Origin: an uncultured Bacteroidota bacterium
GTDB lineage: Bacteria; Bacteroidota; Ignavibacteria; UBA10030; UBA8401
Direction: 5' to 3'
Assembly: GCA_963772165.1 (NCBI GenBank)
Contig: CAVYWA010000014.1
Coordinates: forward strand, 247,363 to 311,362
Length of the DNA: 64,000 bases
Shown here piece after piece: positions 31,193 through 43,095 of the stretch (the stretch's first letter is position 1; each line of letters opens with the position of its first letter). Position numbers and translations under genes: made by a program. The notes beneath the pieces are model-generated. The model made no database searches. It was not told the origin of the DNA and was given only the letters and a program-made list of their open reading frames with translations.

Positions 31193-32162
31193 AAAACGAA
31201 GTGATTTTGAATCAATTTCCATTCACTGGATTGGGGTACACCTGGGATTACAATCCTAAAAACACTAGTCATATCGGAGTTACTGAATTCGTGTTAAACG
31301 AGAAAAGGAAAGTCTATGTCAGACAAACATTGAGTACTTAATGACTATTTAAATGCTCTTGCCAAAAGGCTGTCAAGCGATAGAAGATGACGAGAAAAAC
31401 GGTAGGGTATAAGATCGCCGAATGACACAATGTTTCCGTTGCTTACGGATGCAGCCTAACAAGAAGGGAAATCTATTCATATTATCTGTTTTCTTTGTCA
31501 GTCAATACTGCTGCCTTTCTAACGATATTAAAGCCACCGAGCCCCCCATCTTTTCTCTAAATTTTCCCTTGAATGAGTGGTGGATGTCTCCTAATTGGTG
31601 ATTGCAGCAGCCCTATTAAATCAGGACTCGCAGCGGTAAATGCGAATTATTACGCGACTTTGTTACAATTTGGTTACATGAGCGTTCATTTCATGCAAAA
31701 GCCGGTGTAATTACAGGGGCTTTATGTTGATCCGACGGTCTTAGAAGGCGAGTGCTCTATTCTGCTGAGTCAATTAAGCGAAATAGCTCTTCTGGAAATC
31801 TCGTTGGCATTTATGATCGGACCTTATTAGTAAACAGATTTCGTAGCTCAAAATCTAACCAGAATTCCCCCAGTGCAATGCAAAGAAACTTTACCGGCCA
31901 TTCATTCTAAGTTCTATTCCCGACTGAAGGACATTCTAATAACCTCATGCAATGTCTGTTTTCCTTCCAAAAAATACCTGATTTATGCTATTGCATGTTT
32001 CTGGCCAAAAGAATATGATTTGGACATTCAATTAACCTTTTGAATTTGTCGTTGACAGCATTAGGTCGAGAATAAAGTGCATAGGGCCTCAGTTTGTGCG
32101 GTTGCAACCATCCTTCCAATTTCCTACATTTGTGCATTATTTCAGGCGGAAAAAGCGGTCTT

Positions 32163-34953
32163 ATGAACACCCACTCCCCGGGGCAATCCAAAACGAATAA
32201 TTCATATCGAGTTACCGAAGCTCAAACGCGGTTTAGCCTTATTGATCCCGAGCTTCAAAAAGCTGGATGGAATCTCTCTGATCGAACGCAAGTTAAATTC
32301 GAGATTCCGGTTGACGGGTATGACGGCTCGGGCGGTGGCGGATTCACCGATTACACTTTGTATAGAACAAATGGCGAAATCCTCGCGGTGGTAGAAGCAA
32401 AGCGAACAAGCCGTGACCCGCGAGAAGGGGAGAAACAGGTTCTTGAATACGTTACTGCGATAGAGAAGAAGCAGAGCTTCCGTCCATTCGCATTCATGGC
32501 GAATGGTGAGGATGTATTCTTCTGGGAGAGTGATACCACAGCCCAACGCCACGTTGCGGGATTCTTCTCGCGTGAGAATCTTGAGCGCCTTCTTTTCTTA
32601 AAGCAAAATAAAAAGCCGCTCAACTCAGTCCTTCCGAATAAAACGATCATCGACCGGAGCTACCAGGTCGAAGCGATTCGTAGAATCTCCGAAGCAGTTG
32701 AAAAGAAAAAACGAAAAGCTCTCCTCGTGATGGCGACGGGGACCGGCAAGACCCGCACGATCATGGCGTTGATCGATGTCTTCCTGCGGGCTCACGCCGC
32801 GCAGAAGGTTCTCTTTCTTGCCGACAGGGACGCTCTTGTCGACCAGGCGCTCAGCGACGGCATCAAGGCCCATCTCCCTCACGAATCGCGGACGAGGATA
32901 CGAACCTATTCGATCGACACAACCGCACGACTCTACGTCTCCACGCTTCAAACCCTCGAGATGTGTTACGATAAATTCACTCCAGCAGATTTCGATCTCG
33001 TCATAACTGACGAATGCCACCGTTCGATTTACAATAAATTCACCGACGTGCTGGCTTATTTCGATGCTGTGCACATCGGACTGACCGCGACGCCTGCGGA
33101 ATTCATCGACCGAGATACGTTCAAGTTTTTTGATTGCGAGGGGAGAGTGCCGACATTTCTCTATCCGTTTGATAAGGCAGTGGAGGAGAAGTATCTGGTA
33201 GACAAAAATGTTTATGCTGCACAGACAAAGTTTCAAAGGGAAGGAATAAAAGGGGCGAATCTCAGCGAAGTAGATAAAGAGACCCTTCGCAGCCGCGGGA
33301 TCGATCCCGATGATCTCGACTACGAAGGGACCGATCTTGAACGCAAGGTGACAAACAAGGACACATTGCGGAGTCAGTGGGAAGAGTTTATGGATGTCTG
33401 CTACAAAGACTCCACAGGCCAGCTTCCAGGGAAATCGATTATTTTTGCCATCACACACAATCATGCGATGCGTTTGTCTGAAACTTTCGACGAGATGTAT
33501 CCCGAGTATGAAGGGAAGCTCGTTCAGGTAATTGACTCAAAGATGGAACGTGCCAAGACGCTTCTTGACGATTTCAAGAAGCAGAATTTTCCTCGCATTG
33601 CAATTTCTGTAGACATGCTCGATACAGGCGTGGACGTTCCCGAAGTGGTCAACCTTGCCTTCATGAAGCCGGTCAATTCGCAGATCAAATTCTGGCAGAT
33701 GATTGGACGTGGCACGAGGAACCAGGAGGCCTGCAGGCACTATGAGTGGCTGCCGAACAGAAATAAAGAAGAATTCCTAATCGTTGATTATTGGGAGAAC
33801 TTCGAGCACTTCAATATGATGCCGGCTCAGGAGGAGGGAGTTTCGCAAATCCCGGTTCTGGTGACAATTTTCAACACGCGATTAGATAAGCTTCGCATCT
33901 TTCAGGGAAATCAGACATTCCCCGATGCGCTGCGGGTCATTCGCGACCTGAGAAGTGACATCGCGCGGATCCCGCTACAATCCTTTTCGGTGAAGAAAGT
34001 ATTCAACGAAGTGCGTGAAGCGTGGGAAGACGAGTTCTGGAAGTACTCTCACCGAGCAAAAGATAGAATTTCTGCGGATGAAAGTTGGACCGCTTCTGCG
34101 GTATGTTCCCAACGTGCGTCCGGTTGAGGCATCTTTATAAGTAAGATGGAGCGCTGTGGACTTGCACACCTCCAGCACAAAGATCTCGCTTCTTATATAA
34201 CCTCAATTCGCGAAGATGTAGGGTTACTTCCGACGACATTGGGCGAAGTGCAATCGAGGCAGAAATACGTCGATCAGCTTATGTCGAACGATTTCTGGGT
34301 GAACCACACGCTTGCAACAATTGACGAAGCGAAAGAGGCGCTCTCCCCAGTAATGAAGTTCAAACGCGAGCGACCGTCGTTCGTTTTCGAACTGGGGCTT
34401 GACGATGTGATTGCAATGCGCAAGTGGGTCGTGGTAAGAAAAGATTCTCAAAAGATGTATATCGAAGAGTACCGAAAACTAGTAGAAGCGAAGATCGAGA
34501 AGATCGCTGCCGAGCATCCGACAGTAAAGAAGATTAAGAATAAGGTTGAGATTGACAATGAGGATATGATACGATTGGAGGAGACGCTCGAAGCGGAGCT
34601 TGGAACGGACGAGATTAGCCTCGACGATGAGAATATGCTGAAGGCGTTTGGTGTGCGCGTTGGAAGCTTGGTGGACTTCCTTAAACATGTGCTCGGACTT
34701 GAAGCGCTCCCCTCGTACGAAACTGTTGTGAGGAAGGCATTCGATGCCTTCATCCTTGAGCACAACTACAATTCAGATCAGTCAAGGTTCCTGCGTGTAA
34801 TGCAGAGTGTGTTTTTGCAGCGGAGAAAAGCTGCAGCTTGCGGATCTGTATGAAGAGCCGTTTACGAACTTCGGTGCGAATGCGGTAGAGAAACTGTTTG
34901 CGGGAAATGAAATTACTGAACTAATTGAGTTGGCAAAGAGATTGGCGCCGTAA
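32163..34953 (+). pseudogene. hsdR: Type I restriction enzyme R subunit (HsdR), disrupted by an in-frame TGA at 34125-34127 and a frameshift near 34801-34853
   Basis: The N-terminal region has the HsdR_N motif (TEAQTRFSLIDPELQKAGW). The helicase region reads MATGTGKT..VITDECHRS. After the in-frame stop the same frame continues into the EcoEI_R_C-like domain (34146-34853). The final ~30 codons (..EEPFTNFGANAVEKLFAGNEITELIELAKRLAP) lie in a third frame. Confidence 0.7.
34862..34884 (+). repeat. Left copy of the 23-bp imperfect direct repeat (tttacgaacttcggtgcgaatg) at the hsdR 3' end
   Basis: It matches 38082-38104 (tttacgaactttggtgcgaatg) at 22 of 23 positions. Both copies encode ..PFTNFGAN.. 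Confidence 0.7.
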
Positions 34954-34999
34954 AATCCTGCATGACACAATTTGAATTAACATTAAGGAGGAAACTAAT

Positions 35000-35371
35000 A
35001 TGGGAAGTTCTGGAACAGGTAAGCTAAGTGATTATTCGGAAAAGACTGAAAAGAAAGGGGGCGGGAAGGCTTCTGGTGCCAGCGGCAAAGATCCTTGTGA
35101 TAACGCATTTGCAACTACACTGGAAGATGTTGATCGATGTGAGTACTTTAAAAATCACAAGTCGGTTCCGCCTATTGGCACAGAAGTCATCGTCTCTCTT
35201 AAAGGCCGCCTTTTGGTTGATACATTGGCCGGCGAGACTATTGGCTACTTACCCACGGAGTATAACTATTTGGCTGGATGTATGAAGAAAAAACGTTCAT
35301 ATGGAGGTCAGGTCTCTTCAGCTACCACGAAACCTGTAATTAGAGTTAGGGTTGACATCGGACCACAATGA
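35000..35371 (+). CDS. Small hypothetical protein with Gly/Lys-rich N-terminus (first gene of the 4-gene cassette)
   Basis: The 123 aa ORF has a strong AAGGAGG RBS 7 nt upstream. Its N-terminus reads MGSSGTGKLSDYSEKTEKKGGGKASGASGK.., and it has a ~80-aa C-terminal domain. Confidence 0.45.
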   Translation: MGSSGTGKLSDYSEKTEKKGGGKASGASGKDPCDNAFATTLEDVDRCEYFKNHKSVPPIGTEVIVSLKGRLLVDTLAGETIGYLPTEYNYLAGCMKKKRSYGGQVSSATTKPVIRVRVDIGPQ

Positions 35372-35372
35372 C

Positions 35373-36740
35373 ATGACGGAAAAGTCTTCGGCAATCTTGC
35401 TCATCGGAGAGACCTGCCTTGATGTGACCCTTTTTCCTGCAGGCACATTGGAAAGGAAGCTTAGGCTCGGCGGAGTGGTACATGCTGCTCGATGTCTTTG
35501 GGGACTTGGGGCTTCATATCAACTGGCATACTTGGCACCAAGTTACTTGTTTCGCCAAATCGAAGACTACGCCCTAGCCCACGGCTGTTCCAACGTCTCA
35601 CAGATCGCGACAATTGAGGGTGCACCCTGCGTTATGCTTATTGAAGAAGCCACTGAAGCGGGTAGTCAGGGATATGACTATCTACTACGAGACGAATTGA
35701 AGTGTGATATCGATACACCAAGATTGGAAAGCATAGTCACAAAAACGGAAATATCTGACATCTTGGTGTTTCCGGGCAACTATGATCTCGCCAAGGTGCT
35801 CGTTGCATGTTCTAAATCAAAGGCTCGGATACATATTGATATCGCAAACGGTGTCAGTAATCTCAGTGTCCTGAAAAAGTTTGTGAGAAAATTTGACACG
35901 GTCATTACTTCCACATCATCAGAAATCTTCTTGGACAAATTTAAGGGGAGTCCCGAGCGCCTTTGCCAAGAAGTTCTTGATATCTATGGTGAGTCTTTCT
36001 TATTGAAAGAGAATCGTGGAGGCTCAAGATTTTACTCGAGCAGAGCACAGAAGAAGCCCATCGAAATCGGGGCTCAGTTGAGACCCATTGTCCACTCTGT
36101 TGGAGTGGGAGATGCGTTCGACGCAGCATTTGTTAATCTTAGGCAGACGCGCGATGACGAATCTGCCCTTACTTGTGCTTCATGGATTGCTGCAGAATAC
36201 GCGGCAACTACGTTCATGGACGACTTTACAGATGGCTGTAGTCGTGTTTTGGCATTGGAACGAGACGAGATCTTATCTCTTCCAGGTGTTTCTCTTCCAT
36301 GGGAAGTCCGTAGCCAATTCAATATTTATATTGCTGCTCCTGATTTTGACTATCTGGATAGAACACACATCGATCGATTAGTCAGTTGTCTCAAGTATCA
36401 CAATTTCAATCCGAGGCTTCCTGTTCGAGAACATGGACAAAGCAGGCCAAACACAGCGAGTCATGAGAAATACGAAATGTGTGGCGCTGATTTGTCATTG
36501 CTCGATGAATGCGATATGTTAGTTGCGCTAAACTTGGGGAATGATCCAGGTACATTGATTGAAATTGGCTTAGCCAAAGGGGCTGGTAAGCCAGTAGTGG
36601 TTTATGATCCATTTGAGAAAGCTAAGAATCTAATGTTAACTCATCTGCCAGACTTCGTGTCATCGAGTCTTGACGGAATAGTGACTAAAGTGTTTGAGAT
36701 AATATCAACGATCAGGCATGCCGCATCACAGAAAAAATAG
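35373..36740 (+). CDS. PfkB-family kinase fused to a nucleoside 2-deoxyribosyltransferase-like (NDT/Rossmann) C-terminal domain
   Basis: The N-terminal half reads ..LLIGETCLD..GGVVHAARCLWGLG.. and ..VGVGDAFDAAFV.. (the PfkB GAGD-type signature). The C-terminal half reads ..NIYIAAPDF..CDMLVALNLGNDPGTLIEIGLAKGAGKPVVVYDP.., an NDT-like DxGTxxExG..GKP pattern. The ATG at 35373 lies 2 nt after the upstream stop. Confidence 0.55.
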   Translation: MTEKSSAILLIGETCLDVTLFPAGTLERKLRLGGVVHAARCLWGLGASYQLAYLAPSYLFRQIEDYALAHGCSNVSQIATIEGAPCVMLIEEATEAGSQGYDYLLRDELKCDIDTPRLESIVTKTEISDILVFPGNYDLAKVLVACSKSKARIHIDIANGVSNLSVLKKFVRKFDTVITSTSSEIFLDKFKGSPERLCQEVLDIYGESFLLKENRGGSRFYSSRAQKKPIEIGAQLRPIVHSVGVGDAFDAAFVNLRQTRDDESALTCASWIAAEYAATTFMDDFTDGCSRVLALERDEILSLPGVSLPWEVRSQFNIYIAAPDFDYLDRTHIDRLVSCLKYHNFNPRLPVREHGQSRPNTASHEKYEMCGADLSLLDECDMLVALNLGNDPGTLIEIGLAKGAGKPVVVYDPFEKAKNLMLTHLPDFVSSSLDGIVTKVFEIISTIRHAASQKK

Positions 36741-37347
36741 ATCCGTTCTTTTAGCCTCCGGGGGCCTTGACTCGACTACATTGGCATATTGGTTATGTCG
36801 AAAAAAAATTGAATTCCTCCCTGTGTTTGTAAACTATGGACAACATTGTGCAAAGACGGAGTACGAAACACTCAGAGAAGTGCTTCCGAAACATTACTCA
36901 AGACACATCCATGTCGTTGATATCTCTGATGTCTACAAGCGCTCGAAATCGCTTTTGATTCGTGAGCCAAACCTGTGGAAAGATCGAGTGAGCTACCGCG
37001 AATTGTATCTTCCTTATCGCAACTTGCTCATTCTGTCCACGGGCGCGGCATTTGCACAGTCCGTAGGTTGCAAGTGTCTCTATGCGGCATTTATCAACAG
37101 CAACCATGCGATTGAAATTGATTGTTCTGTCGAGTTCTTTGGCAGATTGGATTCCATGCTATCGAGCTATGGGTCTGTCAAACTGTTCATGCCATTTCGC
37201 ACAAAATCGAAATATCAGGTAGCAAAGATGGGTATCTCGCTTCGTGCGCCTATTGGGAAAACGTTCTCATGTCAAGTTTCATCGGTCACTCCGTGCGGCG
37301 CCTGTCCAAATTGTGTTGATCGGTTACAGGCACTTCGTCAACTTTGA
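36718..37347 (+). CDS. QueC-like PP-loop ATPase (7-cyano-7-deazaguanine synthase family)
   Basis: The sequence has VLLASGGLDSTT (the SGGxDS PP-loop). A C-terminal Cys cluster reads C-x8-C-x2-C-x2-C (FSCQVSSVTPCGACPNC), matching the QueC Zn site. It overlaps the upstream gene by 23 nt. Confidence 0.7.
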   Translation: MPHHRKNRSVLLASGGLDSTTLAYWLCRKKIEFLPVFVNYGQHCAKTEYETLREVLPKHYSRHIHVVDISDVYKRSKSLLIREPNLWKDRVSYRELYLPYRNLLILSTGAAFAQSVGCKCLYAAFINSNHAIEIDCSVEFFGRLDSMLSSYGSVKLFMPFRTKSKYQVAKMGISLRAPIGKTFSCQVSSVTPCGACPNCVDRLQALRQL

Positions 37348-37376
37348 TATCATGTAGCATCATTTTGAGAATAGTC

Positions 37377-38069
37377 ATGAACCTAATCGTTTTCGCGCGT
37401 AAACTTGCTGATTACCTTAACAAGCTTCCAGATTTTGTAATTTCTAAGCACAACGGTTACGACAAAGAGAGTATGGGTGCGATAATAGCAGATGCGGTAT
37501 TGCAGGCAGGCCTTAATTACCGGACCGTTGTTGCTCCGAGAGTCAAGAGAATTCTCAACGATTATCCAGATGCTGCGACAACTTCAGGTTTCCTAGTAAC
37601 AATCGACAGGTTCGGATGCGATGTAATCCTTCGATGGAATCACCCGGAAAAGCCGAGAAGAGTTCAATCTCTGGCTTTATTGCTTGAAAACGAACAAGTT
37701 GAGACCAAGGATCAATTGCGCGATTGGCTTAAAAATGACGTTAACAGTGAAAAGTTGAGAGCTATCCCGGGAATTGGACCGAAGACCATCGATTATCTGA
37801 AGAACTTATCCGGACTTTCAGCAATTGCCATAGACCGACACATACGTAGGTTAGCCTTCGAAGCAGGTATAATCATTACTGATTACCGTACGTTGCGAAA
37901 GGTGGTCGAGTTTACTGCGGATCTTCTTGATGTTCCGCAAAATGATCCTGACCATTCAATATGGCTCTACATGTCCAAGCCTTCACGATCATATTGTAAG
38001 AAGACCTCAGAATTTTCAGAGCAACCAGCATTCTCTCGCGAAAGAAATGGCAAAGCTTGTTTAATTTGA
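37377..38069 (+). CDS. HhH-GPD superfamily DNA-glycosylase-like protein (OGG/EndoIII-like); an alternative TTG start at 37344 overlaps the queC-like stop
   Basis: The sequence reads ..LRAIPGIGPKTIDYLKNLSGLSAIAIDRHIRRLAFEAG.., a helix-hairpin-helix followed by a Gly/Pro-rich loop and a conserved Asp. Confidence 0.55.
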   Translation: MNLIVFARKLADYLNKLPDFVISKHNGYDKESMGAIIADAVLQAGLNYRTVVAPRVKRILNDYPDAATTSGFLVTIDRFGCDVILRWNHPEKPRRVQSLALLLENEQVETKDQLRDWLKNDVNSEKLRAIPGIGPKTIDYLKNLSGLSAIAIDRHIRRLAFEAGIIITDYRTLRKVVEFTADLLDVPQNDPDHSIWLYMSKPSRSYCKKTSEFSEQPAFSRERNGKACLI

Positions 38070-38081
38070 AGCGAGGACCAT

Positions 38082-38104
38082 TTACGAACTTTGGTGCGAA
38101 TGTT
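38082..38104 (+). repeat. Right copy of the 23-bp imperfect direct repeat flanking the cassette
   Basis: See 34862-34884. It lies 13 bp after the glycosylase-like stop. Confidence 0.7.
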
Positions 38105-38253
38105 GCCGATGAGCTGTGTGGTGAACATGAGATATAAGATTTTATTGCGTTGGAGAAGTTGTTAACTTTGCCGGCGTTTTTTTGTATATTCAGGATGGAT
38201 TCTATCTAGACAACGTGATGAGTCTTCCCTATTAATAGTTTACGCATTTATCC

Positions 38254-39400
38254 ATGGAACCATTGGTATTCATACATCTGTCAGACATCCACTTTTCCAA
38301 GCCGGGGAAACTGTTTGATTTGGACAGTGAACTCAGAAATCAATTGGAATTGGATGTACAACGGATGACGAAAAACTTTGAGGGAGGAGCCAACGGCATC
38401 TTAGTTTGCGGTGATATCGCTTTCTCTGGAGGTACCGAAAAGTACCAGGAAGCAAGTCGTTGGATTAAGAAGCTACTCGGAATGGCAAAGGTTGAGAACG
38501 GCGGCGTTTGGGTGGTGCCTGGGAATCACGATATAAACTGGACGACTATTCGGAGCAGCAAATCCCTGAGAGAGGCACACACAACACTCCGTGGCACACC
38601 GCTTAGCTCAATCGACCAATGTTTCAAAGAATATCTTGATGACAATATTCTCAGACTCTTTGAACCATTGAAGGAATTCAACTTATTTGCATCTTCTTTT
38701 GATTGCGACTCAACCCCTGATCGCCTATTTTGGCAAGATGATCTTGAACTTAATGATGGCTCAATACTGAAAATAAGAGGGATGAATTCGAGTATAATTT
38801 CGAACGAGTATGATAATGATGAGGGAAAGAGTCTGATACTGACTTCATTTCAGTCAGGCTTTATTGAGGAGCCAAACATTACTTACGTTTCCATGTGTCA
38901 CCACCCACCACAAAGGATTCGTGAAGAAGATGACCTCGAAGATTGCTTGAATTCGAGAGTTGCGATCCAGCTATTTGGACACAAACATCGGCAACGATTG
39001 CGTCGGAACGGTGAAGGTCTCAGAATTTCCGCAGGAGCCAGTACACCCTGCTCGGGATGAGAGTCCATGGGAGCCATGTTATAATTGGATCTCAATTTGT
39101 GTCGATATTACCGAAAGCAATCGGAATCTCGTGGTCGATGTTTGGCCGCGCGTATGGAGACCTGCAAGTAGGACTTTCGAGCCTGAATTTCACGATAGCA
39201 AAGAATTCAGACGATTCACCCTGCCTCTAAAACCGTGGAAAGGCAGTAAGGTAAAGAAAATTCAAGCTCAGGTTGGAGACCAGACCAAAGGCCCCCTGGC
39301 TGTTATTAAGGCGAAGTACCATGGATCCCAAAAGACAATTGGTTTATCGCTTTTTAAGTCTCCCATATACCCAGATTATAGAAATCGCAGTGGGCCTTAG
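38254..39400 (+). pseudogene. Calcineurin-like metallophosphoesterase gene with a probable frameshift near 38990-39060
   Basis: The N-terminal part reads IHLSDIHF..GDIAFSG..GNHD..GHKH in frame 1 (38254-39060). Coding-like sequence continues in frame 2 (38960-39400). Confidence 0.45.
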
Positions 39401-39498
39401 GTTGCTAACGGACCAAGACAAAGGTGTCGAGGATTTGGAACTTTTCAAGCGATTCATTGCGAGAGTGAAAAGAGAGGAAGAGAAACGATGGCTCAGCT

Positions 39499-40215
39499 TT
39501 GGGATTGGGTGGAGGACAAGTACGGGAGCGAAAGAAGCACCACAAACCCCTTCAAGACAAACTGATCGGAGAAAAAACAAATGGAAATGAACCCTCTTTT
39601 TTGGAAGGGTACGGAATGGTTTACCCCAACCCATCAGTTGAGATTCTCCAAAGGCGATGGGTCATCGTGGAATCGATTGCTGATGCCCTAAGTACTCCAC
39701 ACACAGCGAGCCTCGTGGCCCTCTGCGTATGCGGCCTGAAGGAAGATTCCATAATCAACCTATTGAACGAGAAGTTCAAGGCTGAAGACGATTCATTCAA
39801 CATCCGATCTAACATAGAAGGGTTGAGATCCCTCGGAACCGCGATCTTGGCTAGGATCATAGAATATGAGAAATCACAAAACTGCACATTCACCGCTCTT
39901 GCTGTCCATTGTGCTAGTTTTGGGAAATCGAAAGGGGACGCATTCACCGCAGATATCATTGAAATTGCTGGAAAATTTCTTGCAAAAAAAACGCTGCAGA
40001 TTCGATCGCGCACTTCAACCGAATCAAGCTTGATGAAAAACAAAGACCTTGAAGGGAACGATGTAGGGACACAAGCGCTCAATCTCGCCAAAGGGCTGCA
40101 AAAGAGCACTATGGAACTTGTGAAGAAATTGAGCACTAATTTTGAATTGCTAGCTGAAGAAAGCAATATGTTCTGGTGGTTAGTCGGGGAATCAGAACAT
40201 TGGGCGAGTCTCTAA
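39499..40215 (+). CDS. Hypothetical protein, probably a fragment of a larger frameshifted gene
   Basis: This 238 aa ORF is too long to arise by chance at this GC content. It overlaps neighbouring ORFs in other frames (39273-39590 and 40176-40601). Confidence 0.35.
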   Translation: MGLGGGQVRERKKHHKPLQDKLIGEKTNGNEPSFLEGYGMVYPNPSVEILQRRWVIVESIADALSTPHTASLVALCVCGLKEDSIINLLNEKFKAEDDSFNIRSNIEGLRSLGTAILARIIEYEKSQNCTFTALAVHCASFGKSKGDAFTADIIEIAGKFLAKKTLQIRSRTSTESSLMKNKDLEGNDVGTQALNLAKGLQKSTMELVKKLSTNFELLAEESNMFWWLVGESEHWASL

Positions 40216-40601
40216 TCGACCTTCCTCATCCTGCCCGTTTGCTATTAGCGGCCAAAGAGTTGGCTGCCCTGACCACTCTTAGACCAGGACCACCATCAGC
40301 CAAGGCGATTCTTTTAAAATGTGCGAAACTGACTAAGGATAAGTCAAGCGGATCATCTTCGCTGAAGCATGCCATAAATTCGATTCCGCAGGAATGGCTT
40401 TCTGCGACTCTCAATCCGAATAGCCAAGTTCTAGAACTTGCTAACACCTCTGATGTTTGCAGGACACAGACGAATGGAAAGCGGAAGCAAAACGGCATGG
40501 TCGAGCAGCTTTTGAAAAAGAATAGGGATACCTACAGACAAGCAGATATCAGATGCAGATCTGGCATTCCAGTATTATCAAGAATGTCTGCTCGAAGCTG
40601 A
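40176..40601 (+). CDS. Hypothetical protein fragment (continuation of the preceding reading frame chain)
   Basis: The 141 aa ORF has a GTG start and overlaps the end of 39499-40215 by 40 nt in a different frame. Confidence 0.3.
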   Translation: MVSRGIRTLGESLIDLPHPARLLLAAKELAALTTLRPGPPSAKAILLKCAKLTKDKSSGSSSLKHAINSIPQEWLSATLNPNSQVLELANTSDVCRTQTNGKRKQNGMVEQLLKKNRDTYRQADIRCRSGIPVLSRMSARS

Positions 40602-40692
40602 ATTCAAAACATTGACAGAGGAGTAAAATTGGGAGACGAAGAAATCGTGAATAAAGATCAACCAACAGGTACTTGGAGAAATTAGAGAATCG

Positions 40693-42333
40693 ATGTCGGT
40701 CGCTTCAAAGGGAAAGGGAGAGGCAGATCAGGGAGAAATGCGAGAGCTGTTTTCAGGTGAAGACTTGAAGGCTGCAGACGTTGAGCGGATAATGGATTCA
40801 TCAGGAACCAGGTTGATCGTTCTTGCTGGCGCTGTGGATGCTGGCAAAACAACATTATTGCTGACGATAGTTCATCAATTCTACAAGGGCGGATTTGGGG
40901 ACTTCAACTTTGCGGGGTCAAGAACACTACTTGCGTTTGATAGAAGAGCTTTTGATTCAAATATTATATCAGGAAGAACTGTACCGACCACTCAACATAC
41001 AATTTCGAGTCTTGATAACATCAAGTTTCTGCATCTGGCAGTTAGAAATAAAGATATGAGTGGGCCAATAACCAACTTGCTATTTACAGATATCTCTGGG
41101 GAGAATTTTCGGGATGCGAGCGACTCTGTTGAGGAATGCCGCAAACTTTGGGTTCTCCGTCGAGCCGACAGATTGGTTCTTTTATTCGACGGGAACAAGA
41201 TAGCCGATCCGGCTAACGCCAGAAAGCGAAAGTAGAGGGAATGATGTTGCTGAGAAGATGCGTCGAAGCGGAAATGATTGGCGGACAATCCAAAATCGAT
41301 ATCATCTTCACAAAAAAGGATATCTTAGAAACCTCTCCAGATAAAGGAAGAGCACTTCCGTTTGTGGATGAGATAAAGGCCGAAATTCTGAGTAAGTTCA
41401 TGGGCTCTTTGGGAACTATTAGTTTCTTCTCTGTCGCGGCTCGTCCAACGATGAAGCCAATACTTGGCGAGACTTATGGCTTCAAGGAATTCCTACCAGC
41501 TTGGATTGATGAGAGTCCATTTATTCGGACGATAAAAAGAGACGTTCCGAACACGTTATCCGAAAATTCCCGAATGTTTTTATCTTCGAAGCTTGAGGAG
41601 GAATATGTGATAACTGATGTAGCAATTCATCGGTGCAGTCAACTTCTGGTCGGATTACCAGACACAGGGAAGTCGACCTTCCTTGCTGCTTTGTATCACC
41701 AGGTTGAAGGCGGTGACATCAAAGGTTCTTTGGTATTGGAGAGGTTAGGGTCTGATATCGAGTATCTAAACAGAATCAGGGAAGATTGGTTGAAATGCGA
41801 AAAGATTAGTAGAGCTACTGGTGTCAAAAGCAAAAAAGTACAATGCTTCTACGGGATCCCAACACATCATTACTTTCAGGGTCACGATTCCTGATTTACT
41901 TGGTGAGATTTTTGACCATCAATTCGAGGAGAGAAGATGGACTGATGAATTCGAAGAAATGGTTATTTATGTAATGGTCTCGTGGTTTTTATTCATCCCG
42001 ATAAAGTCACTCCGGTGAGATCTATTATGGAGGCAAACGTTGTAGTGGAAATGGTTGAAGAAAAGGACTCTCTAATGCCCCCCTTGTAACATGGACGGCA
42101 AAGGGTCCGCGACTCAGATAAAGTTGGTAGATATTCTCCAATGCATACTCGATGGTACGGCTGAGGATAAAGTTACTCCCGTTGCGATTGTAATATCGGC
42201 GTGGGATCGGGTGCTTTCATTACCTAAAGAGTGCGGCGGAAATCCCAAAAGATTCGGTCAAAAAGAGACTGCCTTTGTTGAACCAGTTCTTGGATTGAAT
42301 TACGAGAGGTTATTACAAGATATTCGGAATTAG
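40693..42333 (+). pseudogene. Double-GTPase-like (two tandem P-loop GTPase domains) gene with three or more frameshifts
   Basis: Domain 1 reads GAVDAGKTT (G1), DISGE (G3) and, after the first frame break, ..KIDIIFTKKDIL (G4). Domain 2 reads GLPDTGKST (G1), ..PDLLGE.. (G3) and ..VAIVISAWD... Frame changes occur at ~41217-41235, ~41821-41894 and 42018-42091. Confidence 0.5.
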
Positions 42334-42497
42334 TGTCAAGGAGGCGATTATACAAAGGACAAAGCAAATATTGGGTGAGGCATCGAAAAGGGTTCTTGTT
42401 TATTCAGATACCGGAGCATATGACAAGGATATTTCCGCTCCTATAATAAACAATGGGCAATGTCACTTGTTCCTTTAGAAGAACGTGGTAAATATTA

Positions 42498-43095
42498 TTG
42501 ATGGTACTACATCAAACATTACACGGTTATTGGGACTGTCATAGATTGCTTCAGTCATCATTGGATCTGGACTCTTCAGAAAAAAGAACTTTGTTGTCGA
42601 TGTCAGACATGTCAGGTCCTAGAATGGTCAATGGCTTCGAGGAAGATCTCCTCAGGGTACCCGATTCCTTAATTGAGAGTACTTTGCATTTGCCAAACCA
42701 TGGTACGCTAACGAAATGCCTCGTCCAGGTTGTGTTTGGACTCACTGGGTTATCGACCGAGAAGACGAATCTTGCCATACTTGTTAGAAATACTATTATC
42801 GCTTTTCACTCGTCCGGGTGCCGTTTCTTCCATATTATCGTATGGTCGAGATGTTGTTATTGATGAAAGCCTGACAGTAAATAGAAATGTCAAACTCGTA
42901 AGACTTGACCTTGGAAGGATCAGTCTGAATGCGAGGAACAAAACAGCCTTGTTTGCCTTACCCTACAAGCCTATATTTTTGATTTCTTCTAATGCAAGAG
43001 ATTTCGAATATGTTCCGCTAGGGATCTGGAAAGGAATCTGGCCAGGATTAAGAGTCTGTATATGTGTTTTTTGCAGTTGCTTTTTACATTCTTAA
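42498..43095 (+). pseudogene. Hypothetical gene split across two frames near 42820
   Basis: The ORFs 42498-42863 and 42730-43095 overlap, and a +/-1 shift would join them. Confidence 0.3.

Follow-up and report, generated by a model that had tools for sequence, protein, structure and literature searches.

A small tailed protein with a predicted HIRAN fold is a candidate substrate of the QueC-like enzyme encoded in its four-gene cassette

Introduction

A short gene at positions 35000..35371 of a 64,000-nt stretch of DNA from an uncultured Bacteroidota bacterium (contig CAVYWA010000014.1; this whole stretch is referred to as the window, and all positions without a locus name are counted in it) raises the question of whether its 123-residue product is a partner, or even the substrate, of the QueC-like enzyme encoded two genes downstream. 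Conjugation of a nucleobase to a protein by QueC-family enzymes was first described in 2025, in the type IV cyclic oligonucleotide-based antiphage signaling system (CBASS), where Cap9 ligates 7-carboxy-7-deazaguanine to Gly2 of CdnD, a protein with the N-terminus MGGSGGSFGSGFD, to give the modification termed NDG (10.1101/2025.04.06.647259). Cap10, a homolog of tRNA-guanine transglycosylase (TGT), binds the tail after modification and positions its catalytic Asp at N9, and the OGG-like Cap11 is a suggested eraser (10.1101/2025.04.06.647259). Cap9, Cap10, and Cap11 are also found with TIR proteins (10.64898/2025.12.03.692087), and the target protein can therefore be swapped. In 2026 the same kind of conjugation was inferred for QatABCD, in which QatB carries a 30–90-residue disordered tail that begins with MGTS and has been modeled in the active site of QatC; a G2D substitution in this tail abolishes defence (PMC13279940).

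A preliminary description of the window, made from its letters, had pointed to the small protein as a possible conjugation target or partner. It had also attributed the type IV CBASS conjugation to a QueC-like enzyme acting with a TGT-like partner; the first part stands, since Cap9 does conjugate, but Cap9 acts alone and Cap10 binds the product. Here we describe the small protein, its family, and its genetic neighbors. Drawing on analogy, motif conservation, synteny, and covariation, we think it reasonably probable that the N-terminus of the protein's tail is the acceptor of ligation by the QueC-like enzyme, as in CdnD and QatB.

Results

The open reading frame (ORF) at 35000..35371 (stop codon included; plus strand, as are all window features described below) is a real gene and not a chance ORF, because a word-indexed search returned 30 relatives of 105–143 aa that are 40–72% identical to its product, with E values from 1e-51 to 5e-18. 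A profile search with a limit of E<=1e-3 expands the family to at least 312 clusters (50% identity), and 252 of these reach E<=1e-10. The translation begins MGSSGTGKLSDYSEKTEKKGGGKASGASGK. Direct inspection of the letters places a Shine-Dalgarno sequence, AAGGAGG, at 34985..34991, 8 nt 5' of the ATG, as expected from the strong ribosome-binding site assigned to this gene earlier. The TGA stop (35369-35371) is separated by 1 nt from the ATG of the next gene at 35373, so the spacing of 2 nt first given was essentially right. A promoter and terminator scan of 34600-38400 gave scores no better than those of shuffled sequence, and the window's small protein has no match in Pfam, NCBIfam, PADLOC, or PHROGs.

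The small gene stands first in a cassette of constant order. In ~80 complete loci, from six phyla or more judging by record names, it is followed by genes for a PfkB-like kinase fused to a nucleoside 2-deoxyribosyltransferase (PfkB-NDT), a QueC-like protein, and an Ogg2-type glycosylase (OGG-like protein). A genome scan found 29 loci, mostly from Bacteroidota, with additional loci from a Chlorobiota metagenome-assembled genome (MAG) and a Melioribacteraceae MAG; 27 of the 29 have the identical four genes in identical order. Of the other two, L027 has a different gene where the OGG-like gene is expected, and L029 is an orphan. Among 58 loci on four IMG/VR and 54 metagenome contigs, the cassette is complete in 46, and the other 12 end at a contig edge and keep the order as far as it is seen. 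The full cassette is also carried by plasmid pENH92 of Cupriavidus necator, by Proteus mirabilis, and by a plasmid of Neotabrizicola. The linkage holds from the other side as well: the QueC-like protein has 1868 homologs at E<=1e-10, the best 120 of which are 59–88% identical to it, and at all three loci picked via this protein, from Fibrisoma, a Pyrinomonadaceae bacterium, and a Chloroflexi MAG, the small gene lies immediately upstream. A lack of conserved homologs tied to QueC-like genes, which by the preliminary description would have spoken against its suggestion, is thus not what was found.

Departures from this order are few. Plasmids of the Bacillus cereus group encode PfkB, NDT, and QueC as one 658-aa fusion directly after the small gene (L031:7347-9323, NZ_CP042875.1); at this locus a NUDIX gene lies directly upstream and there is no OGG-like gene. 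Among partnered homologs with enough flanking DNA, the OGG-like gene is missing only from L027 and L031. No match to the small protein was found in 50,697 phage records, and no match to the Proteus cassette DNA was found in complete E. coli genomes.

Fourteen columns are invariant in a 28-member alignment of the small protein (M1, G2, S3, G5, D11, Y12, C33, R70, G82, L84, P85, T86, C94, and G103), and six of these fall within residues 1–12, in a region of low predicted local distance difference test score (pLDDT <50, residues 5–27 of the AlphaFold2 model). This N-terminal motif, MG(S/T)(S/T)G(S/T)GxF(S/T)DY(S/P), occupies codons 1–13 (35000..35038) and is the proposed acceptor site, with Gly2 presented after Met removal. 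It is followed by a Gly/Ser/Lys-rich linker of variable length (codons 14–30, 35039..35089), which is predicted to be disordered from its pLDDT and composition. Residues 1–30 of the window's protein include 8 Gly, 6 Lys, and 6 Ser, and the flexible, Gly-rich N-terminus noted from the letters is borne out by both composition and model. Across 148 family members, 19–50 residues (median 33) precede the first conserved Cys, and the linker is composed of 27% G, 15% S, and 9% K. An MG start is present in 138 of 177 family sequences, with the consensus MG(S/T)(S/T)G(S/T)GxF(S/T)DY; within these 138, G5 is kept in 129, G7 in 111, F9 in 107, D11 in 122, and Y12 in 132, and S/T at position 3 is nearly invariant in the family. 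N-terminally longer gene calls contain an internal Met-Gly exactly at the start of the profile match and are therefore mis-called starts.

The motif is conserved at the level of the peptide. Over 35 loci, synonymous codons differ at G2 (GGA/GGT/GGG/GGC), S3 (AGT/AGC/TCA), G5, D11 (GAT/GAC), and Y12; because several synonymous codons encode these invariant residues, the constraint acts on the peptide, and a nucleotide-level cause of the conservation was ruled out. The MG(S/T)(S/T)G start resembles the MGGS and MGTS N-termini of known or proposed substrates of QueC-family enzymes (10.1101/2025.04.06.647259; PMC13279940). The strict linkage and a near-invariant MG(S/T)(S/T)G on a disordered tail together support the original suggestion that the protein is a possible substrate or partner of the QueC-like enzyme. 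The orphan L029 (L029:1992-2336), a 114-aa HIRAN-type protein adjoined by a dUTPase-like gene, has neither the MG motif nor partner enzymes, which is consistent with a tie between the tail and the QueC-like enzyme.

To residue 2 of the tail there is a correlate in the QueC-like protein. A coherent subclade of small proteins has Glu at this position and keeps G7, D11, and Y12 (P0112, P0113, P0115, P0128, P0136, and others). Exact-protein look-ups led to the full cassette at three Glu2 loci (small genes at L102:1046-1477, L103:5001-5420, and L104:4453-4839) and to two short contigs with the small gene followed by PfkB-NDT; a metagenome scan aimed at Glu2-type loci returned Gly2-type loci only. 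Of 67 QueC-like positions that are at least 95% conserved among 68 unique Gly2-clade sequences, eight are altered in all three Glu2-clade enzymes: S76C, N127D/Q/E, H130V/L/L, E133G, I134, F141L, M158, and Q186L. Half of these positions fall within residues 127–134, just before D135-C136 (hypergeometric P = 0.003). PfkB-NDT is altered at 2 of 76 conserved positions in the same clade, and the OGG-like protein at none of 28. This pattern, from three loci of one clade, is suggestive of a tail residue 2 that varies with the QueC-like pocket but not with the other enzymes.

The remainder of the small protein (codons 31–123, 35090..35368) is assigned to the HIRAN fold by fold comparison. Residues ~31–123 are predicted to be well folded (pLDDT >94) and contain no low-complexity stretch; in the model they form a beta-rich, binding-type HIRAN fold and no enzyme fold. 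The predicted fold agrees with the earlier view of the protein as a substrate or carrier and not an enzyme, but a protein with a HIRAN domain is more than a Gly/Lys-rich carrier. Sequence comparisons are less telling. The window's small protein does not match Pfam HIRAN (PF08797), which is hit weakly by 11 of 28 relatives (best E 0.006). An hhalign comparison with the HIRAN domain of HLTF, using a query checked to be identical to the PDB chains, gave an insignificant E of 0.51 and paired RLLVD..IGYLPTEY with AIKVNN..VGHLKKEL of HLTF, and the small-protein sequence profile found nothing significant in the PDB. The HIRAN assignment therefore comes from fold comparison only. The HIRAN fold binds DNA 3' ends in HLTF, and by its fold the domain in the small protein may bind DNA ends too. 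We know of no HIRAN domain with a conserved N-terminal Gly tail or a link to QueC, and in the library searched no paper contains both HIRAN and QueC as whole words.

The second gene (35373..36740) encodes a 455-aa protein with an NDT domain (PF05014, E 3.9e-14, residues 318–413); a PfkB domain is detected in its orthologs. Conserved motifs are RLGG, KENRGG, HSVGVGD, IYIAAPDF, and DPGTxIExG. We take HSVGVGD to be the catalytic-Asp motif of PfkB; DPGTxIExG, the NDT nucleophile motif with the catalytic Glu, is invariant. The best solved relatives are genuine NDTs (e.g. 6evs, 1.4e-6) and a CMP N-glycosidase.

The third gene (36718..37347), which overlaps the second by 23 nt, encodes a 209-aa QueC-like putative ATP-dependent ligase that matches PF06508 (E 8.6e-31) and the PADLOC CBASS QueC model (E 8.5e-26); the identities of both downstream genes are thus as first noted. 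When compared with the PDB, the family profile has Cap9 as its best match (9nto_B, 3.1e-16), followed by QueC (8.9e-14 for 2pg3, and 1.9e-11), which would place the enzyme slightly nearer Cap9 than QueC. Its conserved motifs are SGGxDS, YGQx5E, PYRN, DCxxxF, PFx4K, and CQx6CxxCxxCxD, so that the ATP PP-loop, the Zn-Cys motif, and the DC motif are all kept; the published Cap9 signature is close to this set (PMC13329287). Residues 133–136, EIDC (37114-37125), align with Y-P-D-C of B. subtilis QueC.

The fourth gene encodes a homolog of Ogg2-type HhH-GPD DNA glycosylases, recognized by PDB profile and PADLOC, and spans 230 codons (37378..38069); one gene call gives 228 aa, and TTG 37344 is an alternative start to ATG 37378. 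The OGG-like profile matches the 8-oxoguanine glycosylase/AP lyase 9o00 (4e-7) and 3fhg (2e-5). GxGxK and VAVDRH are invariant, and the Asp of VAVDRH is the residue changed to Asn in the variant PDB chain 9o01. The PADLOC CBASS OGG model is matched weakly by the window protein (E 2e-4) and by 15 of 23 orthologs (best 1.1e-7). Neither the OGG-like protein nor the small protein has a Pfam match. All four genes are intact in the window, and by Pfam and PADLOC the cassette contains no CD-NTase, TGT, or Qat component.

Discussion

The reading of the small protein as a possible conjugation target or partner is supported by every computational test available. We propose the following course of events. 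Removal of Met1 would leave the Gly2 alpha-amine at the tip of the ~30-residue disordered tail, and this tip would enter the active site of the QueC-like enzyme. There, a carboxylated purine-like base, by analogy 7-carboxy-7-deazaguanine, would be adenylated and ligated to the N-terminus. PfkB-NDT would take the place of Cap10, its NDT domain binding the tethered base or acting on the free N9 and its kinase domain acting on the sugar. The Ogg2-like glycosylase could be the equivalent of Cap11 and a possible eraser. The domain with the predicted HIRAN fold might guide the conjugate to the ends of nucleic acids or serve as a sensor of them, and the small protein is probably a targeting subunit as well as a substrate.

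NDT domains exchange bases on deoxyribose. The scheme can be drawn out further: NDT would move deoxyribose to N9 of the deazapurine tethered to Gly2, PfkB would phosphorylate the sugar, and the resulting protein-tethered nucleotide would join or cap DNA 3' ends held by HIRAN in a programmed adduct of protein and DNA end, and so block replication of an invader; the Ogg2-like protein would erase the adduct by cleaving between base and sugar. We regard this extended version as speculative and rather improbable.

Several observations weigh against the proposal. The N-terminal Gly is not universal: 14 of 177 sequences (~8%) start with Met-Glu-Ser and one more with Val-Glu-Ser, and after a Met-Glu start the Met would stay on the protein. 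The covariation comes from three loci of a single clade and is probably one evolutionary event. The base-stacking Tyr of QueC (YPDC) and Cap9 (YxDC) is Glu in the QueC-like enzyme and Gly in its Glu2 clade; with this Tyr replaced, the ligated molecule may not be 7-carboxy-7-deazaguanine, and the sequences suggest that the ligand or its mode of binding differs from that in Cap9. The likeness to HIRAN is at the level of the fold only: sequence similarity to the HIRAN domains of HLTF, Rad5, and bacterial lp_0118 is marginal, and the small protein appears, from a single alignment, to lack the NPYD loop with which HLTF holds the DNA 3'-OH. Pfam and PADLOC reveal no recognizable toxic effector in the cassette, unless it is the NDT domain. 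Many flanking genes are ordinary metabolic or housekeeping genes, and the only published treatment of the QueC group that resembles ours, Cluster 4, reads it as purine salvage (PMC13329287).

Two alternatives deserve weighing, and we hold both to be unlikely. In the first, the cassette is a pathway to a 7-deazaguanine deoxynucleotide or to DNA modification: the product of the QueC-like enzyme is an unattached base, for instance 7-amido-7-deazaguanine (ADG) or preQ0, to which NDT adds deoxyribose, and PfkB phosphorylates the resulting nucleoside; the OGG-like and HIRAN proteins then act on DNA, with the small protein a DNA-binding accessory and no substrate. The three enzyme activities do add up to a consistent pathway that leads from a base via its nucleoside to a nucleotide, most canonical motifs are kept in the QueC-like enzyme, and the cassette is found on prophage-like contigs. 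Phages carry 7-deazaguanine DNA, for which 'undetected 2'-deoxyribosyltransferases' and routes through a modified dGTP have been suggested (PMC6884629). However, such a pathway leaves unexplained why a disordered tail should carry so nearly invariant an N-terminal motif, and why this motif covaries with the QueC-like pocket. The conserved cassette includes none of DpdA/TGT, FolE, QueD, and QueE and no restriction partner, and most copies are chromosomal or on plasmids, with none in the phage records searched.

In the second alternative, the cassette encodes a sensor and an effector that work without a covalent tag. HIRAN would sense DNA ends, the N-terminal peptide would dock non-covalently into PfkB-NDT or the QueC-like protein, and NDT would be a toxic N-glycosidase acting to deplete nucleotides or NAD+. 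Effectors that resemble NDT are known from retron defence, and that of retron Ec86/Eco1 reportedly has this activity. The invariance of the catalytic Glu motif of NDT fits this view, as does the lack of any other candidate effector found in the cassette. Yet it assigns no role to the QueC-like ligase, which is highly conserved (60–70% identity) and, judged by its motifs, apparently catalytically intact, and the covariation of residue 2 lies with this enzyme and not with PfkB-NDT.

Housekeeping salvage of purines or 7-deazapurines, with the small ORF an unrelated or regulatory neighbor, accords with the salvage role proposed for Cluster 4, where a PfkB;Nuc_deoxyrib_tr fusion is present in 89% of neighborhoods (PMC13329287), and with the metabolic genes in some sampled flanks, but is most improbable given a patchy occurrence in different phyla, flanks that are unrelated, sites on plasmids and prophages, and decay mediated by insertion sequences (IS), the strict operon order with genes that overlap or nearly abut, the resemblance to the PADLOC CBASS QueC and OGG models, and a Pfam-based survey that is blind to two Pfam-less proteins of the cassette.

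On the preferred reading, ligation to the small protein, the cassette can be compared with known systems. One of the closest is type IV CBASS, with which it shares a QueC-like ligase (best solved relative Cap9), a glycosylase of the OGG type recognized by the PADLOC CBASS OGG model, and a partner protein whose flexible tail starts M-G-(S/G)-S-G and has both an aromatic residue and an Asp ~8–13 residues in (MGSSGSGNFSDY in the small protein vs MGGSGGSFGSGFD in CdnD). In contrast to type IV CBASS, the cassette has no TGT-like Cap10 and, by Pfam and PADLOC, no CD-NTase and no recognized cyclic-nucleotide effector; the protein proposed to be tagged is a 120-aa HIRAN-fold protein, PfkB-NDT stands where the base-exchange enzyme would be, and the Tyr of the Cap9 YxDC motif is Glu. 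Membership in type IV CBASS was rejected, as CD-NTase (SMODS) is absent from the four genes and from the flanks, and Cap10 is absent as well. With QatABCD the cassette shares a QueC-family enzyme next to a small non-enzymatic protein with a conserved Met-Gly on a disordered tail. QatC, however, has ~400 aa and a remodeled active site, and QatB is alpha-helical, whereas the HIRAN-fold protein is predicted to be beta-rich. No PADLOC Qat model was matched, QatC is absent from the PDB profile matches of the QueC-like enzyme, and membership in Qat was rejected because its defining components QatA (ATPase) and QatD (TatD nuclease) are missing from the cassette. Nor is there a TGT-family protein (DpdA) in or beside the cassette that would indicate Dpd-type 7-deazaguanine DNA modification. 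The cassette is probably a four-gene mobile module akin to the type IV CBASS accessory genes for Cap9, Cap10, and Cap11 and, by analogy, probably works like the conjugation step of type IV CBASS and Qat without belonging to either.

The group described as QueC 'Cluster 4' (Libby et al. 2026, PMC13329287) likewise comprises a short QueC paralog with SGGxDS, YGQ...E, and a Cys-rich C-terminus, in an operon with a PF00294-PF05014 fusion in about 88% of cases. The printed motifs, YGQx6E and CHx5CxxCxGCxK, differ slightly from YGQx5E and CQx6CxxCxxCxD of the cassette's enzyme, and the two sets are matched by description only. The small tailed protein and the OGG-like gene are not mentioned in that work (PMC13329287); its neighborhoods are Pfam-based, so genes without a Pfam family could not appear.

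If ligation to the small protein is confirmed, the cassette would represent a third, widespread architecture of QueC-family tagging, with at least 312 sequence clusters, and the annotation as purine salvage would be corrected: two of the four genes fall outside Pfam, and gene callers sometimes miss the small one. Two swaps are telling, a HIRAN fold as the tagged protein and a deoxyribosyltransferase-kinase fusion in place of the TGT-like partner; together they point to N9 glycosylation of a tethered base and to a nucleic-acid destination. A four-gene cassette without a cyclase or a separate effector also makes the step after tagging testable. Were the protein-tethered nucleotide to prove real, it would also show what purpose the free N9 of NDG serves in type IV CBASS.

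Genomic context

The cassette is found on plasmids, on prophage-like contigs, and in defence islands, a distribution that argues for a role in conflicts with phages or mobile elements and against housekeeping; the cassette is probably mobile and antiviral. On two IMG/VR contigs (L044:24-5796 and L047:457-5796) it follows tail-fibre-like, holin-like, and amidase/endolysin genes, and such a position after lysis genes is typical of prophage accessory genes. The flanks vary by locus, and none of the genes flanking the cassette in the window recurs at the 29 genome loci. One recurrent neighbor is a gene for a ~430-aa AAA_15/AAA_21 ATPase, matched by the PADLOC models AbiLi, AriA, and NsnB, which lies just upstream of the cassette at 8 of 28 genome loci (among them L001:4214-5503, L002:4176-5468, L008:4175-5467, L009:4143-5489, L013:4175-5464, and L014:4138-5484). 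Other flanks contain HD/dGTPase-like, ResIII, SMODS-associated NUDIX, and integrase genes, and the Cupriavidus flank encodes a Cap4-nuclease domain and an AAA ATPase with a helicase.

In the window, the cassette is flanked by a fragmented HsdR gene, a metallophosphoesterase gene, GAAD/GASH/DO-GTPase/GAP1 genes, and a gene for an Eco57I-type methylase. G+C is 0.42-0.50 over 32-43 kb; the neighboring stretches are lower, at 0.37-0.40 (28-32 kb) and 0.40 (43-44 kb), a pattern consistent with an acquired island. Several of the flanking defence genes (32094-34853 and 38254-43000) are distributed over more than one frame, with HsdR in two pieces, the metallophosphoesterase, and GAAD/GASH/DO-GTPase2/DO-GTPase1/GAP1-N1; small indels distinguish another contig from the assembly, and either pseudogenes or errors of long-read assembly could account for the split genes. 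The window matches contig_1550 of the metagenome assembly ERZ25039529.

On the Ralstonia solanacearum megaplasmid CP084739.1 (L105) the cassette is decayed: the small gene has lost its 5' end beside an IS110 element, and the stretch ahead of what is left of NDT and QueC is broken by IS5 copies. The record of the Neotabrizicola plasmid lists no feature at the small gene (L033:7001-7375), and on the Chloroflexi MAG contig the gene is uncalled (L037:1124-1555). Since the small gene is sometimes unannotated, family counts based on annotation are too low.

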